A stretch of 64,000 bases of DNA. It comes from Limisphaerales bacterium (GTDB taxonomy: Bacteria > Verrucomicrobiota > Verrucomicrobiia > Limisphaerales > AAA164-E04). Below are positions 35,386-47,510 of the stretch, in pieces. The stretch's first letter is position 1. Every line of letters begins with the position of its first letter. The DNA lies in the NCBI GenBank assembly GCA_965204945.1, contig OZ242022.1, positions 3,332,152 to 3,396,151 of the forward strand. Reading direction: 5' to 3'. Under the pieces are notes generated by a model. It had not been told where the DNA came from and searched no databases. It saw only the letters and a program-made list of their open reading frames with translations. A program made the translations under genes and the position numbers.

Positions 35386-35560
35386 TGCCGGACATGAATT
35401 ATTGAAAAACTCTCCCGATCTTCACAACTAAATTTTGACCGCGCTTTGCGATTCGGCAAGTCACCCGCTAATTTTCCATTGAGGTTTCTTTCATCTTATA
35501 TTGGAAGGGCTATCGTTCTTTGCCCCAAATCTTGCGGGAAACTTCGGATTTTTCGGCAAA

Positions 35561-37050
35561 TCAAAAATCTTCCACAGAGCGATGATCCGTTTCGGCACGG
35601 TCGACGGCGAAAAGTGTCAAAGAATCCGAAACAGCAATTTTGCGATAGCCCGCCAGAAACTCATCCAACAAACCGCTTTTCAATTCTCTTCGAGTCAGCA
35701 AAAGCAACTCCGGCTCATAGCGCTTCCACAGATTGATCTTCTCTGAATCATCGAATCCGCAAGCCCAACGCCGTTTGCGCGGCACAACTGCCAATTCGGG
35801 AATCACCTTGATGCCCGCGTGAAACGCCAACTCTGTTCGCGCCGTATAAATCCATTCGCCATTCCCACGCCGCTCCCGCAGAAGCCGAATCATTTTGTGG
35901 TCTTCCACTCGATCCCGCCCCGCCAAAATCTCCGCCTCCCGCTTCATACGCCAAAAACCCTCCACCATCGTCCACGCCACTACCACAGAAAAAACAAAAA
36001 CCTGCCCGGCCAACCACGCCGCTGTCCACCACTGCGCTTTTCTAAAAGAAAGCAACTTCTGCAACCATACAGCCAAACCCGCCGCCGAAATCCAACTCAA
36101 AGGCGCCACAAAGTGTACATAGTAATAAGACCAGTAAGGACGATGAACCCCATGCACCACCAGCGCCGTCAACAACAAAACCACCGGAAACACTACCGGC
36201 CGCCGATAAACCAACAACAACACCAAACCCAACCCGCCAGCCGTCAACACCTCCAAATGCTCCAGAAACACCCCCGGATCAAAAGCATAACGCGCAGACT
36301 CCTTCGCCCCTTCCCGTACTTCCTCCGAAAAATGCGTCCCCACAATCAACTTCCAACTCATCGCCGGAAAAAACGCCCACACCAAACAAAACCCTCCAAA
36401 CACTCCAAAAAACAATCCCAAAAACCGCGCTCCCAACCAGCGACAAAAAACGCCAACCCCACCTCCCCTCGCGCCCTCCCAAGCCAAAGCAGCCAACATC
36501 GCCGGCAACACCATGCCCGCCGTCAACTTCACTTGAAGCGCCAACCCCAAAACCAATCCCGCAACAACGCAACGAACTACACTCCGCTTCCCCGAAAACA
36601 ATACCGCCGCCGCCGCTAAACCGCCCGCCATCGACGGCACTTCCAACATTGCCGAAACGCATAACAGCAACATTTTCGGCGCCAACCCCGCAAACACAAT
36701 CCCCACCAACCCCGCAAGCCAACCCGCCTCCCTTGCAACCAACCAGCCCAGCGACCATAAAAAAGAAACCCAAAACCCGCCGCAACAAGCCGAGCAGTTG
36801 CCGCCTCCGGCCCCAACCAACAAAAAAACAACGCCGTAATCGCCGTATGCAATGGCGGCTGATCATTCCAAATCGGATCGTAAAGAGCAACGCCCTCACT
36901 CAACAAATATGCCTTTGTAAACTCAAAACCCTCATCCCCACCCAGCATAACCGCGTTCTGCCAAGGAACCAGCAACAGCATCGCCAACACCACCAGCGAG
37001 CAAAAAGCCGCCAATGCCAACGCCTCCGCTCGCCCGCATTTCCCAAACAA
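35561..37050 (-). pseudogene. ArnT/PMT-like (GT-C) membrane glycosyltransferase, one frameshift near 36760
   Basis: GGDEG...WNDQPPL in one frame; MLEVP...QVKLT...RPYWSYYYVHF in the next. One extra T in the T6 run (36759-36764) joins them. Confidence 0.75.
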
Positions 37051-37063
37051 TGCACCCCTCCCA

Positions 37064-37612
37064 TCAATCTCCCTCTTGCCCCGCAACCTTCCTCGAAACA
37101 AACCCCTCCGCCCAAAACAAAACCCCGCAACTTCCCAACAACACATAACCCAAAATCCCCAACGAAACCCGCTCCGCCTGCTCCTCGCTCCAGCCAAACA
37201 ACTTATCCAAACCCGCCAGACAACCGCAATACGCACCCGGATCCCCCAAAGCAATCGCCAACCGATACGCTACAAAAACCGAAGACAACCCCGCGCAACC
37301 CCGCGCCAAAACACAAAGCGAAAACCCACGCCTCAAAATTGCCAAACCCCAACCCACTTCCAACAAACCAGCAACCGCATGCAACTGCCCACTCCGCAAA
37401 AAACTGAAAACCGGATCCTGCACCTGCAACAACAAAGCGTCATTCCACACATTCAACAACTTAGCGCCACCCGTTAGCAGAAAAATAAACGCAAACGAAT
37501 CTAGCAACAAACGAACCCAGCAGGGAGTGAACAAATTGAAATTGCGGGAACCCTTTGCCCACTCAAGCCTTCGCTTCATCGGCAGATTTTGCCCTATGAA
37601 AAGGTTTTTCAT
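37064..37612 (-). CDS. MauE/DoxX-family membrane protein
   Basis: FLLTGGAKL, AGLLEV, CGCLAG; four TM segments. Confidence 0.75.
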   Translation of the reverse strand: MKNLFIGQNLPMKRRLEWAKGSRNFNLFTPCWVRLLLDSFAFIFLLTGGAKLLNVWNDALLLQVQDPVFSFLRSGQLHAVAGLLEVGWGLAILRRGFSLCVLARGCAGLSSVFVAYRLAIALGDPGAYCGCLAGLDKLFGWSEEQAERVSLGILGYVLLGSCGVLFWAEGFVSRKVAGQEGD

Positions 37613-37665
37613 TGTTTATTTTTCAAAACGATTGGCGATTGAAACTGTGTTTAAATATTGGCGGA

Positions 37666-38715
37666 TTAGGGTTGTTTCTTTTGTTTTTTGAGCATTCCTA
37701 TCCAGAAGATTACGGTGATCAACACCGCCAGAGAGAGAATAAAAGTCCACTGCGTCTTGCGGCTTGGTTTGCGATCCCTCGGCACAAACTCCTTGGAAAT
37801 CTTTTCCCCATCCCAATAACCCAGAGATTTAGACTCTAAATGACTATAAATCTCTGTTCCCCTCGGCAAATTCATTCCCTCAATCGTCCAATGATTTTCT
37901 GGAAAGGATCTTTTAACTTCCGCTTCAATCATCGTAATGGTAGTTACCGCCCCAATTCTAGGACGCTCGGAAATGACCTTACTGGGGAGCCAAGGGTATT
38001 TGTCGTTTTCATAAACAGACGTCATCTTATGCAACGGCAACGTTCCATGAGAATACCTAAGGACTTGAAAATTCCGATCCGGATCAATCCAATAGTCCAC
38101 AGGATAACCGTCACTCATAACAACTTGAACATGCCAAGCATCGCGATCCCCAATTCGCTCTCGCCCTTTAATTTCGACAGATCGAAGACGGTCTCGGATT
38201 TTTTGCCACATGAACGACGTGACAGAACTATCCGCTTGCAAGTCATTTACACCAAGAATTCGAGGGTCGAATAAAGGCTGTCCGCTTTGATCTGTGATAT
38301 GCATTATTTCAGCAAATACGGAATCAGAAGGAGCATAAGCAACCACTTGTTGGCCATCATAAACGCCTTGATCGGGAACAATCTTTTCGTCTGCAACAGT
38401 TAAAATGGGTTTGCCCGAGTTTTCGGGATAGTAGTAATAGTGTCGATGCTCTTGGTCAAAGTCTACTTGGATTATTTTTTTGTGGGTTGAAATGCTGTCC
38501 GAACGAACGAACTCCAATTTGAGCGAAGAGGGCGGAATGGAAGCGCGAGCCGCTACTACTCCGTCCAACAAAGCAATTGGATCAGGATAGTTGTTACTTG
38601 TGTCTTCTGACGTTTGCGCCTGTGCTTGCAGTTGTGTTTTACAACTAAGATAAAGCGACAAGGCCAAGAGAAGCGAAGTCACCAGCTGCCGCTGTTGCCA
38701 AGTTCGAGAGCTCAT
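37666..38715 (-). CDS. Secreted protein with C-terminal TM anchor, paralog C
   Basis: Signal peptide, LFDPRILG, YWIDP, PWLPSKV, C-terminal TM + basic tail. Confidence 0.8.
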   Translation of the reverse strand: MSSRTWQQRQLVTSLLLALSLYLSCKTQLQAQAQTSEDTSNNYPDPIALLDGVVAARASIPPSSLKLEFVRSDSISTHKKIIQVDFDQEHRHYYYYPENSGKPILTVADEKIVPDQGVYDGQQVVAYAPSDSVFAEIMHITDQSGQPLFDPRILGVNDLQADSSVTSFMWQKIRDRLRSVEIKGRERIGDRDAWHVQVVMSDGYPVDYWIDPDRNFQVLRYSHGTLPLHKMTSVYENDKYPWLPSKVISERPRIGAVTTITMIEAEVKRSFPENHWTIEGMNLPRGTEIYSHLESKSLGYWDGEKISKEFVPRDRKPSRKTQWTFILSLAVLITVIFWIGMLKKQKKQP

Positions 38716-38763
38716 ATTTTTCAAAACGATTGGCGATTAAAACTGCGTTTAAATATTGGCGGA

Positions 38764-39804
38764 TTAGGGTTGTTTCTTTTGTTTTTTGAGCTTTCCTATC
38801 CAGAAGATTACGGTGATCAACACCGCCAGAGAGAGAATAAAAGTCCACTGCGTCTTGCGGTTTGGTTTGCGATCCCTCGGCACAAACTCCTTGGAAATCT
38901 TCTTTCCATCCCAGTAGCCCAGCTGCTCCGCCTTGGAATAATCGTTGATAACGGTTCCTCTTGGCAAATCCATCCCCTCCAACGTCCAGTGACCCTCCGG
39001 AAATTCTTTCTCCTCAGCTTTTAAAATGGTCATCACGTTTTTACTGATGAAACTTCCATCTTGTTCAAAACGCTCTTTAATCACTTTACTAGGAATCCAC
39101 GGGTAGCTAGTGTTCTCATAAAAGGCTCTTGATTTTGTGATGCGGTGATTTCCAGCAGCAATTTTATAGATGCGAAAATCTCGGCTCGGATCAATCCAAA
39201 ATTCTAGAGAATAACTGCCGTCAAGAAGAATATCGACGTGCCAAGCATCGTTTCCATCAATTTCCACCTTTCCTTTAGTTTCAATTGTTGTGAATCGTCT
39301 CCTTTGTCCTTGGAACATAAACGTTGTGATGCTATCTTCCGGAGTATACACAACTAAATCACCTAACAATCTGGGATCAAACAAATGGAAATTATAGGTG
39401 CCATCGGTGATTTCTCGAAATTCACACCAACCATGAGGATTAGAGTCGAGAGGTTCAATATTGTAACAAATTATTTTCTGACCATCGTAAATACCGTCGT
39501 AAATCTTTTGGCCATCTTTCTCAAGCCGATATCGACGGTGCTCCTTGTCAAAATCAACTTGGTAAGTATTGGTATGAATTGAAACATTATCCTCAGTAGC
39601 GATTTCTAGCTTGAGTGATGAAGGCGGAATGGAAGCACGAGCCGCCACTACCCCGTCCAACAAGGCAATTGGATCGGGATAGTTGTTACTTGTGTCTTCT
39701 GACGTTTGCGCCTGTGCTTTCAGTTGCGCTTCACAACTAAGATAAAGCGACAAGGTCAAGAGAAACGAAGTGACCAGCTGCCTCTGTTGCCAAGTTATAG
39801 ACAT
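38764..39804 (-). CDS. Secreted protein with C-terminal TM anchor, paralog B (mosaic of A and C)
   Basis: Same motifs; termini near-identical to C, internal blocks near-identical to A. Confidence 0.8.
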   Translation of the reverse strand: MSITWQQRQLVTSFLLTLSLYLSCEAQLKAQAQTSEDTSNNYPDPIALLDGVVAARASIPPSSLKLEIATEDNVSIHTNTYQVDFDKEHRRYRLEKDGQKIYDGIYDGQKIICYNIEPLDSNPHGWCEFREITDGTYNFHLFDPRLLGDLVVYTPEDSITTFMFQGQRRRFTTIETKGKVEIDGNDAWHVDILLDGSYSLEFWIDPSRDFRIYKIAAGNHRITKSRAFYENTSYPWIPSKVIKERFEQDGSFISKNVMTILKAEEKEFPEGHWTLEGMDLPRGTVINDYSKAEQLGYWDGKKISKEFVPRDRKPNRKTQWTFILSLAVLITVIFWIGKLKKQKKQP

Positions 39805-39850
39805 GTTTTTCAAAATGATTTGCGATTGAAACTGCGATTGGATTGGCGGG

Positions 39851-40870
39851 TTATGGATTCTCCTTTTTCTTTCTGATCATTCTTATCCAGAAGATTACGG
39901 TGATCAACACCGCCAGAGAGAGAATAAAAGTCCACTGGGTCTTGCGGTTTGGTTTGCGATCCCTCGGCACAAACTCCTTGGAAATCTTCTTTCCATCCCA
40001 GTAGCCCAGCTGCTCCGCCTTGGAATAATCGTTGATAACGGTTCCTCTTGGCAAATCCATCCCCTCCAACGTCCAGTGACCCTCCGGAAATTCTTTCTCC
40101 TCAGCTTCTAATAGAGTTGTTGTCCTATGATAGATGAGACTTCCATTTGCCTCAAAATAATCTTCAATTACCTTTCTGGGGAGCCATGGATAAAGGTCGT
40201 CTTCATAAAAAGAGATAGACTTTGTGACACGAAAAGCACCAGCAATCATTTTATAGATACGAAAGTTCCGGCTTGGATCAATCCATAAATCCAATGGATA
40301 TTCGCCATCCGTAACGATACGAACATGCCAAGCATCGTTTCCATCAATTTCCACCTTTCCCTTAGTTTCAATGGTTGTGAATCGCTCTCGTTGTCCTTGA
40401 TACATAAAATTTTCCGCGTTAGTTCTGGGAGAATATACAGCTACGCTTCCTAATAGTCTCGGGTCAAATAAAGAATAACCACCGCTTCCATCAATAATAT
40501 CTCGAAATTCAGCCTCTTTACTTTCGATTCTATAACTAATTACTTGCTGACCATTATAAATGCCATCGTAAATCTTTTTGCCATCTTTTTCAAGACGGTA
40601 TCGGCGGCGCTCCTTGTCAAAATCAACTTGGTAAGTATTGGTGTGAATTGAAACATTATCCTCAGTAACGATTTCTAGCTTGAGTGATGAAGATGGAATG
40701 GCAACACGATCTGCTACTACCCCGTCTAGCAGAGCAATTGGGGAGGGATAATCGCTTGTGTCCTGTGTCTGAGCAGACTGAGATTCTTTCATTATGCTAA
40801 CAGAAACGATACAAATAATGAGAAATTTAAGAAGAGAATCTCTCGTTTGAAATCGAATTGGAACATTCAT
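39851..40870 (-). CDS. Secreted protein with C-terminal TM anchor, paralog A
   Basis: LFDPRLLG, LWIDPSR, PWLPRKV, GMDLPRGT, C-terminal TM. Confidence 0.8.
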   Translation of the reverse strand: MNVPIRFQTRDSLLKFLIICIVSVSIMKESQSAQTQDTSDYPSPIALLDGVVADRVAIPSSSLKLEIVTEDNVSIHTNTYQVDFDKERRRYRLEKDGKKIYDGIYNGQQVISYRIESKEAEFRDIIDGSGGYSLFDPRLLGSVAVYSPRTNAENFMYQGQRERFTTIETKGKVEIDGNDAWHVRIVTDGEYPLDLWIDPSRNFRIYKMIAGAFRVTKSISFYEDDLYPWLPRKVIEDYFEANGSLIYHRTTTLLEAEEKEFPEGHWTLEGMDLPRGTVINDYSKAEQLGYWDGKKISKEFVPRDRKPNRKTQWTFILSLAVLITVIFWIRMIRKKKENP

Positions 40871-40974
40871 AAATCTCAAGAATTGAATTTTCAATATCAG
40901 TTTCGAACAAAGTAATGCAATTCTGTGCATTACATTAAATTAAGGAATGCGCCAAAAATTAACTACTGCTGTCA

Positions 40975-41403
40975 TCAATCACCACTGCCGTCGCTACTGT
41001 CATCGCCGCTTGTACCAATACAATCCTCTTGGTAAAACTTAGTTGCAAATTGCGGCTCGCCGGTACGCTTTTCTAGATCTTCCTCGCAGTATCTCCAATT
41101 GTCATCCCATTTGCATCCTACAGGCTGCCAACAGAATACTGTATCTGATGAGCAATTTGTGTGGGATTCTTCATCTGAAACGCATCCTTTTGGAAAGCGC
41201 TCGACAATAAACGCAGTTTTGCAATCGCTCTTATTAGTGTAATTCTCACACGATGGTTTCTCCACACAATCCTTTGATCCTCCTGAGACTCTTTCGTTGT
41301 CGCAAGCGTAGAGGATGAGGATTCCGACGAGAAGACCGATGGCGGTTCCGGCGAGGACGCCGAAGCGTCGTTTGATTGTTTCGACTATGTTTGTTGCACT
41401 CAT
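40975..41403 (-). CDS. Small secreted Cys-rich protein (142 aa, 10 Cys; possible lipobox LYA-C)
   Basis: KRR + hydrophobic helix, then a Cys-rich domain and an acidic Gly/Ser tail. Confidence 0.72.
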   Translation of the reverse strand: MSATNIVETIKRRFGVLAGTAIGLLVGILILYACDNERVSGGSKDCVEKPSCENYTNKSDCKTAFIVERFPKGCVSDEESHTNCSSDTVFCWQPVGCKWDDNWRYCEEDLEKRTGEPQFATKFYQEDCIGTSGDDSSDGSGD

Positions 41404-41450
41404 GATGTTATCTATAGTTTCTATTTTGTATTTACGGATTCGAACTCTGT

Positions 41451-42566
41451 TTATTGATTTTGGAGGCGTTGGATTTTGACGGGGACGGAAGTTGCCTCGT
41501 TGCTTCCGGTTCCGTTTTTTTGAATGTCCATAAGGATGTTCAAAGTCAAAGCGTTTTTGAGGGCGTCGGCTTGGATGCGGATGCGGTGGTCGTTGGCCCA
41601 CTAGGATGCGGCGCCGGCGTCTTGGGATTCAAAGCGGATGCCCTTTTCTTTGCCTTTGGCGTCTAAAGCGGCAACGTTTCGAATGGCGGAAGGTTGGGCA
41701 GTTCGGAGTCTCAGTCGTTGTTCTTTTGAGTGGTCGGTGAGGACGATGGTTGCGGGCGTCACTTCGAATGGCGGCACTACGGTGGCGCGGAATTGAAAAG
41801 TGAGTGATGGATACCTTTTGTTGTTGGTCTGGAGTTTGACGGCGCCGGAGAGGTTTTGAAGGCTATGAATGTTGGCGGCGTCTTCGGCTTGGAGTTTGAG
41901 GAGGACTTGCCAGTTTCGGCTGCCGATTTTTTGAATGGAGACTTGCAGGTTTTCGTCCGCTCCCCAAGTTTCCGAAGAGAGCAGTTCAAAGTTGGAGTTT
42001 TCTTTGGCTTCGACGGTGATTAGGCGCTCGCGGGTTTCGCCGGGTTTCATTTCGCCGAAATAAACTTTGCGCGTGTGCGGTTCGTAGGAAAATTCTTCGA
42101 GGATGTCGGCGCGAATGGTGGCGCGGACGAGGTAGTTGCTGCCGGGATAAGTGAGGCTTTCGAGGCGGAAGTCGGAGTCGCTTTCGATGACGCCGACGCG
42201 GTCGCCGGTTTCAAAGCGGATGGGAACGTGGACGAATCCGCCGGGTTGAAGGATTTTGCCTTGCAAGTCTTCCGGCGGAACGGAACAAGCGCAGGAAGTG
42301 CGGACGGAGAGCAGTTTGAGCGCGTCTTGGCTGCGGTTGACTAGGCGGAAATCGGCGATGCGGGCTTCGTTTTGTTGAAGGGTGCCGAAGTCGTGCTTTG
42401 ATGGTTCGAAGACGATGGGAATGCGGGAGTCAATGGCGGGCCTTCGGTCTTTGCCGAAGTAGCCAAGGGCAAAGACGACGACGACGGCGATAACCGCTGC
42501 GGAAGCGATTTCGACCGCCCGCGGAGATCTTCCCGTCCGGGAAGATTTCACTTCGTCAAAAGGCAT
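41451..42566 (-). CDS. DUF1573-like Ig-fold protein; in-frame TAG at 41601-41603 cuts off the last 49 codons
   Basis: TM, HDFGTL, FRLVN, VRTSCACS, ILQPG; the frame stays open after the TAG to TAA at 41451. Confidence 0.78.
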
Positions 42567-44333: not shown

Positions 44334-45284
44334 CTATCGCTTGGTAATCTTTGGCCCGACATATGCAATGTATAATAGTTTGCCCGCTTGTATTGGCCAC
44401 GAGAAATGAATCCGTATCTGGAGAGTCTTCACCTTGCCGTGCCAAGGGCAGAACAGAGGCTCTGCAATCTCCGGTGGATGTGAAAATGTAAGATCTTTCT
44501 TGAACTTTGCCTTCTCGGTATCTGAAGAGTCAGAAAACCAAGCATTATCACCGGTAAAATACTGTTGATACATATTCTGCCCTTGGGGCGTGCGTTTGCC
44601 ATTTTCATCAAAGCAATTTTTGAAATTTTGCAAAATCGCCAAGCGTTTTAGCAGTTGACAGGCTGCGGGTGCGACAAAGGGATGTCCGCGCAACGGTTTG
44701 AAACTTTCTGACGAAAAGGTTAACTCCGGCTAGCGATTCTTTGCTGTTTTCTCGAGCTCTTCCCAAGATTGGATGGGCTTATTAGAGGTTTCAAGAACCT
44801 TCGTCAATGTTTCGGCATCCCAGTAATTGGGAACTTTGATGCTCTTTACGTCTTCGTTCTCGTGCCAGTCAACAACTAAGAACTCGGACAACCATAACGA
44901 CGTACTCATGCTCACGGTGCCGCAGTCGATTTTGTAGAATAGGCGACAAGCCGCTTCCCCTAATCCGGTCTCCGTTACCACATCATTTTTACATGCTATA
45001 TAATCGCTCTCGCTGTGTTGCCGATCATCTTCCCAAAAAGGGCCGTGCCGTGTGATCCACCGCGTCCACGCTCTCCGTTGGTCTCTGCTCAAGCATTGAA
45101 CCGCTTGCTGCATTTTCTTGTCTTTAGTGACATACATATCGGCAACATTGCGATGGCAATACAACTCTCTGCCGAACCACTTTATAGCTTTGCGTATATT
45201 CATAACGCATTCAACAGCCGAACGGAAAGTTGTCAGATCGGGAAACTGTTTATGTAGGGAGAGATCGTTGAAGAAGAGTTCCAT
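44334..45284 (-). pseudogene. Menshen-like third component (putative effector), split by an in-frame TAG at 44730-44732
   Basis: ORFs 44730..45290 and 44334..44693 share a frame (KNR*PELTFSSESFKPLRGHPF). C-terminal WHGKVK..IRIHF...IAYVG resembles RelE-like toxins. Confidence 0.6.
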
Positions 45285-45286
45285 TG

Positions 45287-46426
45287 TCAATCAGCCCACC
45301 CCGCAAAGTAGTTTGTGTCCTTGTCAAACTGATCAAAGAAGCCTTCCGGCCAAGAGTCGATATTGCCAGAGTCATCCAGCACGGGGCTTAGAACCTGCGG
45401 CTGGTCTTCGGAACGCGGCCTGAAAAAGTGGATCGCGACTTGGCCGGCAGCAAGCCGTTTTGACTTGACTGCGCGGCGCACGCCATTTAGCACGTGGTCG
45501 CTGTGTGTTTCTGCCAGCACTTGTATCCCGGCTCTTGCAACATCGGCCAGAAACTGCCCCATCAACGCTTGCCCTGCAGGATGAAGATGCACTTCCGGGT
45601 TTTCGATCAAAATAAGGTCGCCTTTCTTTGCGGACAAAGAGGCAATCACAATGGGCAAGACTTGAGTAATGCCGAAGCCCGTATGGATGGGGCTGTGGAA
45701 GTCCATCGCGTCTGAAGTGCGCAATCCCAAGGTAACGGTGTTGGCATGCTGCACTTGTTTCAACTCCATTCTAAACTCTGGAAAGAGCGTGCGCATGCGC
45801 GCCTCCACTTGTTGCAGGCGAATGGGAGGAGCATCAGGCAAAATGAGTTCGTCTAAAACTTGTTCGTCGCGGCCCCAGTGCAAGAGGCTTACCGCATGGT
45901 TGCCGCGGGGTCCGACTACGCTTACAATATTAGGATCTCGGAGCTCGTAGGCATTCTGAGGAGCGATGCGTTCGGCAGTGATATATGTTAGATCTCGCAA
46001 TCGACGGGTCATGGATTCAGCAAACTCCGCTTCCCTCTGGGGCAACAAGTGCCGCAACTCCTGCGGACGATCGGTCGTTCGTTCATTGACGGAAACACTT
46101 TGCACTTCCATAGACATATTCTGCCGCTCGCCTTGGAAAGTCCAATCATAAACGTTGCCGTCGAATTCTAAGGCAATTCCAAGTTTCGTCCGCCCGAATA
46201 CTTCGTCAATTACATCCGGGGCAGTGCCTAATCGAATGCCGTCACCGTTGAGAATGAGCCTCGTTGACCATTCATGTTGGCGCATCGTTTGGTGGAGTAA
46301 TACCAGCGACTGCAAAACCGACGACTTGCCGGAGGCGTTGGGGCCGGATAAGAGCGTCAACGGCGCCAGCGGCAACTTCAATAACTCAAAGCATTTGAAA
46401 CAGCGCAATTCTATCTGGTTAAGCAT
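45287..46426 (-). CDS. AAA/ABC-type ATPase with DUF3696-like C-terminus (Menshen NsnB-like)
   Basis: SGPNASGKSS, GFGITQVLP, IENPEVHLHP, ETHSDH, WPEGFFDQ. Confidence 0.85.
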   Translation of the reverse strand: MLNQIELRCFKCFELLKLPLAPLTLLSGPNASGKSSVLQSLVLLHQTMRQHEWSTRLILNGDGIRLGTAPDVIDEVFGRTKLGIALEFDGNVYDWTFQGERQNMSMEVQSVSVNERTTDRPQELRHLLPQREAEFAESMTRRLRDLTYITAERIAPQNAYELRDPNIVSVVGPRGNHAVSLLHWGRDEQVLDELILPDAPPIRLQQVEARMRTLFPEFRMELKQVQHANTVTLGLRTSDAMDFHSPIHTGFGITQVLPIVIASLSAKKGDLILIENPEVHLHPAGQALMGQFLADVARAGIQVLAETHSDHVLNGVRRAVKSKRLAAGQVAIHFFRPRSEDQPQVLSPVLDDSGNIDSWPEGFFDQFDKDTNYFAGWAD

Positions 46427-47510
46427 CAAGCACCTCCTGGAACATAGCCCTAGTCATGGCAAAACGAGTTCTTACCTGATATACACTGTTGGGGCCTCGT
46501 GTAATGGCATCTGTAAATTGTTGGTCCATCATCAAATTATAAAAGGCATTTTTCAACGTATCTGAACGTTCATCTACAAGTCGCTCAGAATAACGCGAGA
46601 GTCCGGTAGACATGACGTCCCACAGCGATGCGTTAAGCACGCCGCGGACGCTCTGATTGCGCGTATGTCTTCGGAAGGCATACCTGCCGAACAGATGAAA
46701 GTTGTTGGCCAAAGTTGTTCTGAATTGGGAGGACAAGGTCGGTAGCAACTCTGGTTCTTTGTTCATTTTTATGAGACTCTCGGCAAGAAACTTATCCATG
46801 TCCTTATATTTATCGAGGTCGAGTATTTGGAACGCACAAAACCGATTGACGAATTCACGATCCCGCATCTTTAAAGTCTTCAAACTTCCTCCTGTTGCTC
46901 TCAAAAACACCTCGGTACGCGACTCATCCTTCAAGAAACGTGTGGCTTTCCCTGTGTAAAGGCTGTTGCGCATCTGTTGACGAGTCAGAGGTACTCCACT
47001 GTTGACTCGGTCAAAGATATCCAGTCGAGCTCGTTCGTGCACCTTGGCGTCAATGATGTAGAGGATGAGCTGGCAGTCTTCGATGCGATTCTGAAGTTTG
47101 GGTGTCAAGTCGTTAAAACTCTTTTTATGCAATTCAGGCCGATCTTTCAGCTGAAGATGGAGTTTGTTGTTCACAAAACGCCGGAAGGTGGAAAGTCTCT
47201 GCAGACCGTCCACGACGATCATGCGCCCTTGTTCGTTTTCCGCAAGGTAAAGAACCGGAAGCGGAATCCGCATCAGGACGGACTCAATGAGTTTGCTCTG
47301 CATATCTTCGTCCCAGATGAAATCGCGCTGGAATTCGGGGTTCATAATGAACCTTTCCTGCTCAATGCGTCGCAATACGTCGCCCACTGTGCGAGATTCG
47401 TGCCGAATGAGCAGCGTGTCGATGGGATAATCGCCCCAAAACGAGCTTTGGTCATCCTCCAAGCCTTCAATTTCCTCCTCGGGCGGATCCTTTGTTTTAT
47501 GGTCTATCAT
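46419..47510 (-). CDS. DUF262 ParB-like protein (Menshen NsnA-like)
   Basis: PEFQRDFIW, LIESVL, VVDGLQRL, IFDRVNSG. Confidence 0.87.
   Translation of the reverse strand: MIDHKTKDPPEEEIEGLEDDQSSFWGDYPIDTLLIRHESRTVGDVLRRIEQERFIMNPEFQRDFIWDEDMQSKLIESVLMRIPLPVLYLAENEQGRMIVVDGLQRLSTFRRFVNNKLHLQLKDRPELHKKSFNDLTPKLQNRIEDCQLILYIIDAKVHERARLDIFDRVNSGVPLTRQQMRNSLYTGKATRFLKDESRTEVFLRATGGSLKTLKMRDREFVNRFCAFQILDLDKYKDMDKFLAESLIKMNKEPELLPTLSSQFRTTLANNFHLFGRYAFRRHTRNQSVRGVLNASLWDVMSTGLSRYSERLVDERSDTLKNAFYNLMMDQQFTDAITRGPNSVYQVRTRFAMTRAMFQEVLDA

Follow-up and report, generated by a model that had tools for sequence, protein, structure and literature searches.

Organization of the gene cluster

A 64,000-nucleotide (nt) stretch of the genome of a Limisphaerales bacterium, hereafter the window, was analyzed together with related genomes (G002-G054; the genome holding the window is G000). 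We describe a gene cluster in this window that encodes a small Cys-rich protein, a DUF1573 protein, three paralogous proteins, a divergent MauE-type membrane protein and a glycosyltransferase. The initial annotation had presented these genes as seven tightly spaced minus-strand genes of a candidate surface/secretion system. That description was confirmed in part: the cluster exists, and all of its open reading frames (ORFs) lie on the minus strand where they had been placed, with corrections to the glycosyltransferase, which was found in two frames, and to the MauE label. The features are as follows.

41601-42566, minus strand: membrane-anchored DUF1573 immunoglobulin (Ig)-fold protein, 321 amino acids (aa), with SCAC (CxC); Pfam PF07610; candidate thiol-disulfide shuttle
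40975-41403, minus strand: Cys-rich protein, 142 aa, 10 Cys; N-terminal hydrophobic anchor, variable 10-Cys domain and Ser/Gly/Asp-rich tail; proposed substrate
39851-40930, minus strand: putative LolA-fold paralog 1, start probably at 40870; signal peptide, ~280-aa domain, C-terminal transmembrane (TM) helix and basic tail; fold predicted from the model of paralog 2
38764-39813, minus strand: predicted LolA-fold paralog 2, 349 aa; the copy that was modeled
37666-38724, minus strand: putative LolA-fold paralog 3, 352 aa; its core has diverged furthest, and its ends are 97-100% identical in DNA to another copy
37613-37665, minus strand: repeated spacer of the 37-53 nt class, likewise at 38725-38763 and 39814-39850, one after each paralog
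37064-37612, minus strand: divergent MauE-type four-helix membrane protein, 182 aa, CGC in the helix 3-4 loop; proposed quinone-linked disulfide generator
36760-37051, minus strand: PMT_2/ArnT-like GT-C glycosyltransferase, N-terminal part in a first frame, with a GGDEGFEF loop; residues 9-107 of the intact G002 and G003 homologues align at 52-53% identity (tblastn)
35561-36772, minus strand: C-terminal remainder of that GT-C gene, read in another frame; the frame breaks at a T-run, 36760-36772

The intergenic gaps were mostly 37-53 nt, but 197 nt separate the DUF1573 gene from the ATG of the Cys-rich gene. As had been noted from the sequence, the middle of the cluster was AT-richer than its flanks, with a GC fraction of 0.37-0.46 over positions 37400-41300 compared with 0.52-0.59 in the flanking regions; this low-GC stretch comprises the Cys-rich gene and the paralogs. 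The label of a secretion system was not supported, as secretion machinery is absent from the cluster. Searches of the eight ORFs against Pfam, NCBIfam and PADLOC gave no match to export or leader-processing machinery or to a known toxin or immunity family, and the PADLOC scan of these ORFs gave no match of any kind. Counts of promoter-like sites (11, compared with 7.6 in shuffled sequences) and terminator-like sites (13 compared with 10.5) gave no clear signal. No RNA run was listed among the public sequencing runs matched to the region. Runs labeled as sponge metagenome contained approximately half of the sampled words, with contigs that extended over the greater part of the region, generally at 95-99% identity.

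The Cys-rich protein

The 142-aa protein with 10 Cys holds as originally described when it is read from an inner ATG (40975-41403). The ORF opened from a GTG covers 40975-41601; the database protein (P0017) and all homologues begin at the inner ATG. The family is small, with six proteins in a database of 5.8 billion clusters. In these homologues, the first ~36 residues were nearly invariant, and the remainder was variable upon a conserved Cys framework. The orthologues from G000 and G009 were 91% identical, a divergence no greater than that of the flanking genes. The hydrophobic N-terminus is long, and a cleavage motif was not evident. A search of the ESM Atlas with this protein gave no usable match. 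The possibility that the Cys-rich proteins are pilins was rejected; the prepilin motif was present in neighboring DUF1559 proteins but not in the Cys-rich proteins.

The MauE-like protein

The 182-aa protein had been labeled a MauE/DoxX protein with a CGC motif. By its hallmarks this label is right, although the protein is divergent and lacks a Pfam MauE match. Homologues that are 61-64% identical to it carry PF07291, and this model matched three of nine family members, with a best E value of 3.3e-7. A profile built from the module proteins, which are described below, reached a Pfam-positive MauE of this genome at an E value of 2.6e-4, and a second such MauE is itself a member of the profile. 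Upon alignment of nine MauE-like proteins (from the modules of this genome, from G002 and one database homologue), we found exactly six invariant columns: K51, E85, Y116, R117, C129 and C131. In a topology read by eye, the CGC (residues 129-131) comes after the third hydrophobic stretch and before the fourth, and the basic N-terminus suggests that this loop faces out.

The text of a recent preprint (10.64898/2026.03.05.709764) reports that MauE from two phyla substitutes for DsbB in E. coli and that the CXC of the TM3-TM4 loop is essential. It also describes a conserved Lys in TM1 and a conserved Glu in TM2 near a docked quinone, proposed as the quinone site, and Phe-Gly directly after the CXC. 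The conserved Lys and Glu are matched by K51 and E85 in the window protein. The CGC of the window protein is followed by L-A-G; in the other modules, C-x-C is followed by L, W, S, A or F and then by G. From these hallmarks, and by analogy, we propose that the window protein may be a disulfide-forming MauE-type enzyme. No Pfam-model match to DsbB or VKOR was found in the genome, which is 92.5% complete, at an E value of up to 0.01. A profile of the window-type MauE subfamily gave no match at E≤1e-5 in 400 other genomes of the phylum, and two homologues of cassette proteins, retrieved in the paralog and MauE-like searches, bear the public name "Planctomycetes bacterium".

The DUF1573 protein

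The proposed Ig-fold protein with SCAC was borne out by a PF07610 match at residues 52-127 (38.1 bits compared with a gathering cut-off of 26.1; E value of 1.5e-9). The 321-aa protein has a hydrophobic anchor at its N-terminus and also showed a weak match, below the family cut-off, to the OS_HP2 (seleno)protein family (E value of 3.2e-5). DUF1573 selenoproteins with a UGC motif are listed in tables of two reviews (PMC9312934, PMC13188914). The CxC varied among the copies compared: SCAC in the window, SCSC in G002 and SCGC in the second copy of this genome. That second copy, the only other DUF1573 protein in G000 (C1:316694-317710, plus strand, 338 aa), carries two CxxCH haem motifs after the SCGC and looks like a DUF1573-cytochrome c fusion.

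DUF1573 is the only non-MauE protein of the window cassette that carries a redox-type motif, and it also lies beside the Cys-rich gene in G002, at 40% identity. A redox role is proposed because of the UGC selenoprotein relatives, the haem c motifs of the second copy and the linkage to the Cys-rich gene in G002. We infer that DUF1573 may be a non-thioredoxin shuttle or isomerase specific to this type of cassette, a role read from motifs and gene order.

The LolA-fold paralogs

The three paralogs with a signal peptide and a C-terminal TM helix were found as annotated. They are pairwise 51-69% identical, share an invariant LFDPRxLG motif and end in a basic tail after the TM helix, the cytoplasmic tail being 7-9 residues. 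An AlphaFold2 model of paralog 2, built from an alignment of 14 sequences, reached a pLDDT of 81.5, and a Foldseek search with this model agreed with the earlier suggestion of a LolA-like fold. In the PDB, the best match was the LolA-superfamily protein 3buu (NE2245; E value of 1.2e-10) among 96 matches at E≤0.001, and the top rows also included LolA3, RseB, LolA, LolB and LprG (E values of 1.2e-10 to 1e-7). By sequence, the paralogs fell below the thresholds of the curated LolA-like families (20.2 bits compared with 26 for DUF3108; 14.9 compared with 21.2 for DUF2092). The ESM Atlas returned only unnamed clusters and weak TP_0789/LolA-like leads with scores of 0.82-0.83.

Close relatives of the paralogs are few: a search of the 5.8 billion clusters gave eight proteins, and 8 of the 61 related genomes contained a match. 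Seven of these eight genomes, G000 included, belong to one genus. The wider LolA-like family is large; a profile search of 1.84 billion representatives gave 897 at E≤0.001 and 166 at E≤1e-30. From 150 listed proteins we hand-picked 24 (20 long and 4 of typical length) for a Pfam scan. Extracytoplasmic function (ECF) sigma regions were present together with the LolA-like domain and AhpC-TSA/Redoxin in six of these relatives and without redoxin in two; six had only AhpC-TSA/Redoxin fused to the LolA-like domain, two had a BlaR1 M56 domain, and eight matched no Pfam family. These fusions suggest that the LolA-like domain associates with TlpA/MauD-like thiol oxidoreductases and with membrane signaling.

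The paralogs are mosaic at the DNA level. Paralogs 1 and 2 were 98-100% identical across the last ~60 codons, and paralogs 2 and 3 were 81-100% identical across the first ~80 codons; the cores, unlike these near-identical ends, were 40-70% identical. The sequences downstream were near-identical in all three copies. Since the spacer is repeated after each copy, the duplication unit appears to be the gene plus its spacer. Contigs of public run X9, from a strain ~90-99% alike, join position 37620 to 39812 and so leave one paralog rather than three; such repeat-spanning contigs may be chimeric. Relatives of the paralogs without a MauE or Cys-rich gene were seen in G004 (L017 8965-11472) and G002 (L018 7565-11472). 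Among these MauE-free relatives, one adjoins a 288-aa anchored Ig-like protein, and two flank an IS630-type transposase beside a sulfatase.

The glycosyltransferase

The gene annotated as a single ArnT-like glycosyltransferase is frameshifted into two frames; the GT-C family itself was assigned correctly, as judged from intact homologues. Those of G002 and G003 align across the break, in one frame to 36760 and in another from approximately 36772. The two window pieces gave no Pfam match, and a PDB sequence search with the glycosyltransferase piece returned nothing at E≤10. PF13231 (PMT_2) was above its cut-off in all five intact homologues (30-38% identical), with E values of 7.2e-8 to 1.9e-18, and the "ArnT-like GT-C" label is therefore right. 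A contig from public run X2 was identical to positions 35400-37678 (0 differences), frameshift included; this run is possibly the source sample, so that its agreement on the frameshift is not independent.

In the relatives, the gene was mostly deleted in G009, fragmented in G005, and split and interrupted in G006; in the G002 cassette it is not adjacent. Outside G000, 7 of 18 loci of this glycosyltransferase family lay within 3 kilobases (kb) of a MauE-like match. Three of the seven are orthologues of the window locus and four are non-orthologous (G003, G054, G039 and G038), which argues that the link between the glycosyltransferase and MauE is no accident. One contig of run X9, which may be chimeric, lacks 704 nt of the glycosyltransferase gene (36183-36888). 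We also observed that the PIG-V-like GT-C gene of another MauE module in this genome, module D, lies in two overlapping frames of 234 aa and 298 aa (G000:C1:1454634-1455840; L026 5634-6840). Such frameshifts in glycosyltransferase genes next to MauE-like genes may recur as a pattern, or may reflect homopolymer errors.

Conservation of the cassette in related genomes

The exact core of DUF1573, Cys-rich, LolA-like and MauE genes was found in one genus only and was intact in two of the five carrier genomes. G002 retains all four genes intact and in the same order as in the window, at 35-40% identity. In that genome (L016 10210-13676), the DUF1573 and Cys-rich pair is exactly duplicated in tandem as one unit, and the cassette is bounded by an IS21-like element and an IS4-like transposase. 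The flanking genes are common to G009 and G005, so the locus is ancestral in these two genomes. Decay of the cassette was seen in G005, G006 and G009: in G009, MauE is frameshifted, DUF1573 is shortened, one paralog copy is present and the Cys-rich gene is still open; in G005, the cassette contains many stop codons.

Related modules in this genome and the order

A looser triad, consisting of a small Cys-rich anchored protein, a membrane-anchored partner and a CxC MauE, recurred in at least eight copies in G000 and in at least seven other families of the order, often joined by a glycosyl-transfer enzyme or a pseudopilin-like gene. Beyond the window, a MauE-like profile search revealed at least seven further modules of like plan in G000, and nearly all of its 12 MauE-like matches lay inside such modules. 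The Cys-rich ORFs of these modules are small, with an N-terminal hydrophobic helix and 6-10 Cys, or 18 Cys in the long ORF of module E. Their partners are one to three tandem paralogs of ~300-500 aa with an anchoring helix at the C- or N-terminus. The CxC of their MauE-like proteins is CPC, CKC, CDC or CSC; the copy of module E is truncated and has no CxC. A PIG-V-like GT-C gene is present in modules B, D and F (confirmed by Pfam in module B) and a GtrA gene in module B. A DUF1559 pseudopilin-like gene is present in modules B and G, and the MauE of module H is fused to such a domain.

This module H fusion of a MauE-like and a prepilin-type/DUF1559 region, 476 aa (G000:C1:4002009-4003439; L030 4009-5439), lies downstream of three paralogs and a Cys-rich ORF; in relatives, open frames of 500-580 aa contain many of the MauE-like matches. 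A conserved, charged N-terminal segment of ~40 aa precedes the hydrophobic helix in the Cys-rich ORFs of both module G and module H (L027 4037-4597; L029 G000:C1:676814-677248; L030 3998840-3999220). The same segment forms a separate 104-aa ORF in module B (G000:C1:2974698-2975012), just upstream of the Cys-rich ORF. The segment may therefore be cytoplasmic or act like a leader.

When ORFs were filtered strictly for small size, an anchor and a high Cys content, 11 of 5048 passed; MauE-like modules contain five of them, and one more is 2 kb away from a partial MauE match. A loose filter passed 74 ORFs, and 8 of the 12 MauE matches had such an ORF within 4.5 kb compared with 1.85 expected (binomial P of 5e-4; ~14% of random 9-kb intervals hold such an ORF). 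Of the 61 related genomes, 25 were matched by the module profile; G000, G005, G006 and G009 had 12-14 matches each, and the 11 genomes of the two sister genera had none. We then compared 20 MauE-like loci from 16 other genomes, taken from the upper part of the match list and picked for spread while ignoring their neighbors, with ORFs judged by eye. Ten of the 20 loci had a small Cys-rich ORF that begins with a hydrophobic N-terminal region, and 11 had an ORF of 230-490 aa with a C-terminal TM helix. In a Pfam census of the 105 ORFs of at least 200 aa within 4 kb, prepilin N_methyl, DUF1559 or T2SSJ proteins were found at 12 loci and glycosyl-transfer enzymes at eight (PMT_2, two Wzy_C, three GT1, one GT2 and one PIG-V); neither thioredoxin folds nor DUF1573 occurred at any of the 20. 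A Cys-rich ORF lies beside MauE-like genes far above chance. DUF1573 is no general component of such loci, and DPRxLG-family paralogs stand alongside MauE in one genus only.

The partner proteins form several sequence families, the largest of which has 15 members and includes both module F partners. LolA-like profiles (hhalign and hmmsearch) gave no match to the partners of modules B-E or of the 20 foreign loci. A model of the module F family had a pLDDT of 73.2; in a wide VIA search, the top match showed a Z-score of 10.4 and a root mean square deviation of 3.4 over 150 residues, and the top ten rows were all LolA or LolB (Z-scores of 8.2-10.4). Foldseek returned nothing with this model at E≤0.001. 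By these models, two partner families unrelated in sequence, that of the window paralog and that of module F, share the LolA fold.

Proposed function and alternative explanations

The gene content, motifs, folds and co-occurrence are what the analysis shows; which protein oxidizes which, what the LolA-fold proteins bind, the glycan target and the purpose of the genes are inferred. We consider the chances about even that the cluster is a cassette dedicated to the oxidative folding of one substrate, a variable mini-protein of the envelope that is rich in disulfides. The 142-aa protein would insert into the inner membrane via its conserved N-terminal helix, with the variable 10-Cys domain facing outward. 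The MauE-type protein, encoded four genes downstream, would make disulfides at its periplasmic CGC loop and, by analogy with MauE and DsbB, would pass the electrons to quinone. The disulfides would reach the Cys-rich domain directly or through the membrane-anchored DUF1573 protein, whose SCAC would take the role of the thioredoxin-fold DsbA or MauD elsewhere. The three C-terminally anchored LolA-fold paralogs may bind the product, or the hydrophobic portion of it, in the periplasm; of the proposed roles, this is the least certain. The PMT_2-type GT-C would formerly have glycosylated a component, most plausibly the Ser/Gly/Asp-rich tail, and is now inactive. Glycosylation of the product is suggested by the presence of GT-C, PIG-V and Wzy_C genes and by the tails rich in Ser, Gly and Asp that the Cys-rich proteins carry; in the window this step is lost. 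The product of the cassette is probably a fast-evolving envelope or surface protein. The initial annotation had the flanking genes fold, oxidize and glycosylate the Cys-rich protein; the MauE hallmarks with the CXC support the oxidation, but the glycosyltransferase is frameshifted and DUF1573 is not general.

Several observations weigh against an oxidative-folding cassette. The window MauE-like protein had no Pfam or NCBIfam match at E≤0.1, and none at E≤1 when searched alone; a PF07291 search of the genome gave nothing at the window locus, and the L-A-G after the CGC differs from the F-G of the preprint. The window cassette has no thioredoxin-fold partner, and DUF1573, absent from all 20 other loci, is not a general shuttle. 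As the glycosyltransferase is frameshifted here and deleted or broken in relatives, glycosylation cannot work from this copy. In G009, MauE is frameshifted while the Cys-rich gene stays open, and the Cys-rich protein may thus not depend on its own MauE. The partners of modules B, C, D, E and of the G/H type showed no sequence likeness to the window paralogs. Additionally, the loose filter missed the window's own Cys-rich gene and took in some spurious-looking ORFs.

The cluster could instead be a toxin-immunity locus, which we regard as unlikely. The Cys-rich protein would be a disulfide-stabilized bacteriocin-like or contact-dependent effector matured by MauE, and the LolA-fold paralogs would be accumulated, anchored immunity proteins. 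Such a locus would account for a variable Cys-rich domain behind a conserved N-terminus, mosaic paralog arrays with diverged cores and converted ends, and a paralog copy number that varies among strains; the decay in G005, G006 and G009, the insertion sequence elements around the G002 copy and the low GC are also in keeping with it. However, the cluster contains no export or processing machinery, peptidase or ABC transporter and matched no PADLOC model, the Cys-rich N-terminus is long with no evident cleavage motif, most other modules have a single partner gene, and the G000 and G009 Cys-rich orthologues are no more diverged than the flanking genes. We find it improbable that lipid or lipoprotein handling is the core activity, with the LolA-fold proteins shuttling or holding a lipidated or hydrophobic component, the Cys-rich protein as lipoprotein cargo and MauE as a housekeeping oxidase linked by chance. 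According to their structure titles, the LolA, LolB and LprG folds bind acyl chains, and ILYAC in the window and LTAC in module D, before the first Cys, resemble a lipobox. The lipobox-like motif was nevertheless absent, by eye, from the Cys-rich proteins of most other modules, and the paralogs are membrane-anchored whereas soluble LolA is not. The multiplication of MauE-like genes to 12, nearly all in modules, also misfits a single housekeeping oxidase.

A sensor function, with the LolA-like domain detecting a signal in the periplasm in the manner of RseB and the cassette signaling envelope or redox stress, is suggested by the ECF sigma-region fusions (8 of the 24 scanned relatives) and the BlaR1-type M56 transducers (2 of 24). 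It is quite improbable for the window genes, whose paralogs have a cytoplasmic tail of merely 7-9 residues and whose cluster has no regulator gene. Finally, the genes might form no functional unit at all and be neighbors by descent, with unrelated jobs, in a decaying AT-rich island. The pseudogene state of the glycosyltransferase and the piecemeal loss among relatives are consistent with this, but it appears highly improbable, since the combination is seen again at loci that are not orthologous and in further families of the order, and since G002 keeps the core gene order at 35-40% identity.

Comparison with known systems

MauA is the six-disulfide protein of the mauE/mauD system. The window cluster resembles mauE/mauD and mauA in having a four-helix protein, with a CXC between TM3 and TM4 and the conserved Lys and Glu residues, next to a small exported protein that would be its disulfide-rich client in need of maturation. 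In contrast, the window has no MauD or other thioredoxin-fold gene, and its proposed substrate is an unrelated, variable, membrane-anchored mini-protein. It also adds LolA-fold partners, DUF1573 and a GT-C, occurs as one of many cassettes per genome and has a MauE below the Pfam threshold. DsbL/DsbI in E. coli is a private disulfide-forming pair, a DsbB homologue with a thioredoxin-fold DsbA homologue, beside the client AssT. The window would likewise encode the enzyme beside its client, although its oxidase is of the MauE type and its sole candidate shuttle is an Ig-fold CxC protein. The N-terminal domain of DsbD is Ig-like and periplasmic, has redox-active cysteines and a membrane redox partner; DUF1573, with a putative redox role, has a CxC and is unrelated to it in sequence.

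The modeled open beta-barrel with a helical plug of the window paralogs is similar to LolA, LolB, RseB and LprG. The paralogs differ from the LolA superfamily in being ~100 residues longer, in their C-terminal TM anchor, in their diverging tandem arrays and in belonging to none of its sequence families; furthermore, fusions to TlpA-like redoxins, ECF sigma factors or BlaR1 domains occur among their relatives. PMT/ArnT-type GT-C transferases include the pilin-modifying TfpW and Wzy_C O-oligosaccharyltransferases. The intact homologues of the window glycosyltransferase match PF13231 and would act periplasmically with lipid-linked donors. Other MauE-like loci are akin to PMT/ArnT/TfpW systems in carrying pseudopilin-like genes and genes of the PIG-V-like, Wzy_C, GT1 or GT2 type, whereas the window copy is frameshifted.

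In line with the earlier statement, searches of the literature on DUF1573 and MauE/MauD/DoxX found no named system with this layout. Searches for MauE with LolA, DUF1573, PMT_2 or Verrucomicrobiota gave no publication that joins MauE to LolA or DUF1573. The text of the preprint (10.64898/2026.03.05.709764) does not mention gene neighborhoods or Planctomycetes-Verrucomicrobia-Chlamydiae (PVC) bacteria; its supplements may hold fusion or distribution data. Substrate-dedicated disulfide machinery is a known kind of system; the layout of the cassette and its many-copy recurrence in this bacterial group appear undescribed. MauE was established as a general disulfide-forming enzyme only by that 2026 preprint, and the window locus and its sister cassettes offer candidate natural client-enzyme pairs beyond the methylamine cluster. 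DUF1573 is a candidate non-thioredoxin shuttle, and the predicted LolA-fold partner, in relatives fused to TlpA-like redoxins, is unexpected. The cassettes mark fast-evolving multi-copy envelope proteins in an uncultivated PVC lineage without DsbB or VKOR matches, and the model can be directly addressed with published dsbB-complementation assays.

A broader possibility, which we think rather unlikely to hold in full, is that these modules belong to an extensive, so far undescribed family of cassettes that are each self-contained. Every cassette would produce an envelope mini-protein of its own kind, knotted by disulfides and often glycosylated, and would bring along both the MauE oxidase and the LolA-fold escort for it. 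In DUF1573, a membrane enzyme that generates disulfides would have its first partner outside the thioredoxin fold (Ig-fold, CxC), and the whole would be a polymorphic recognition or antagonism system. If so, given the relatives in sponge-metagenome runs, these bacteria might supply cystine-rich peptides in such hosts.

Neighboring genes

Near the cassette, positions 45287-46429 on the minus strand encode NsnB, a candidate defense gene in PADLOC (E value of 1.8e-101). NsnC, also a PADLOC candidate on the minus strand, is split into two ORFs, of which 44730-45290 covers profile positions 1-186 and 44334-44693 covers positions 200-319. This NsnB/NsnC stretch (44334-46429) is a second example of a gene in two pieces close to the cassette.

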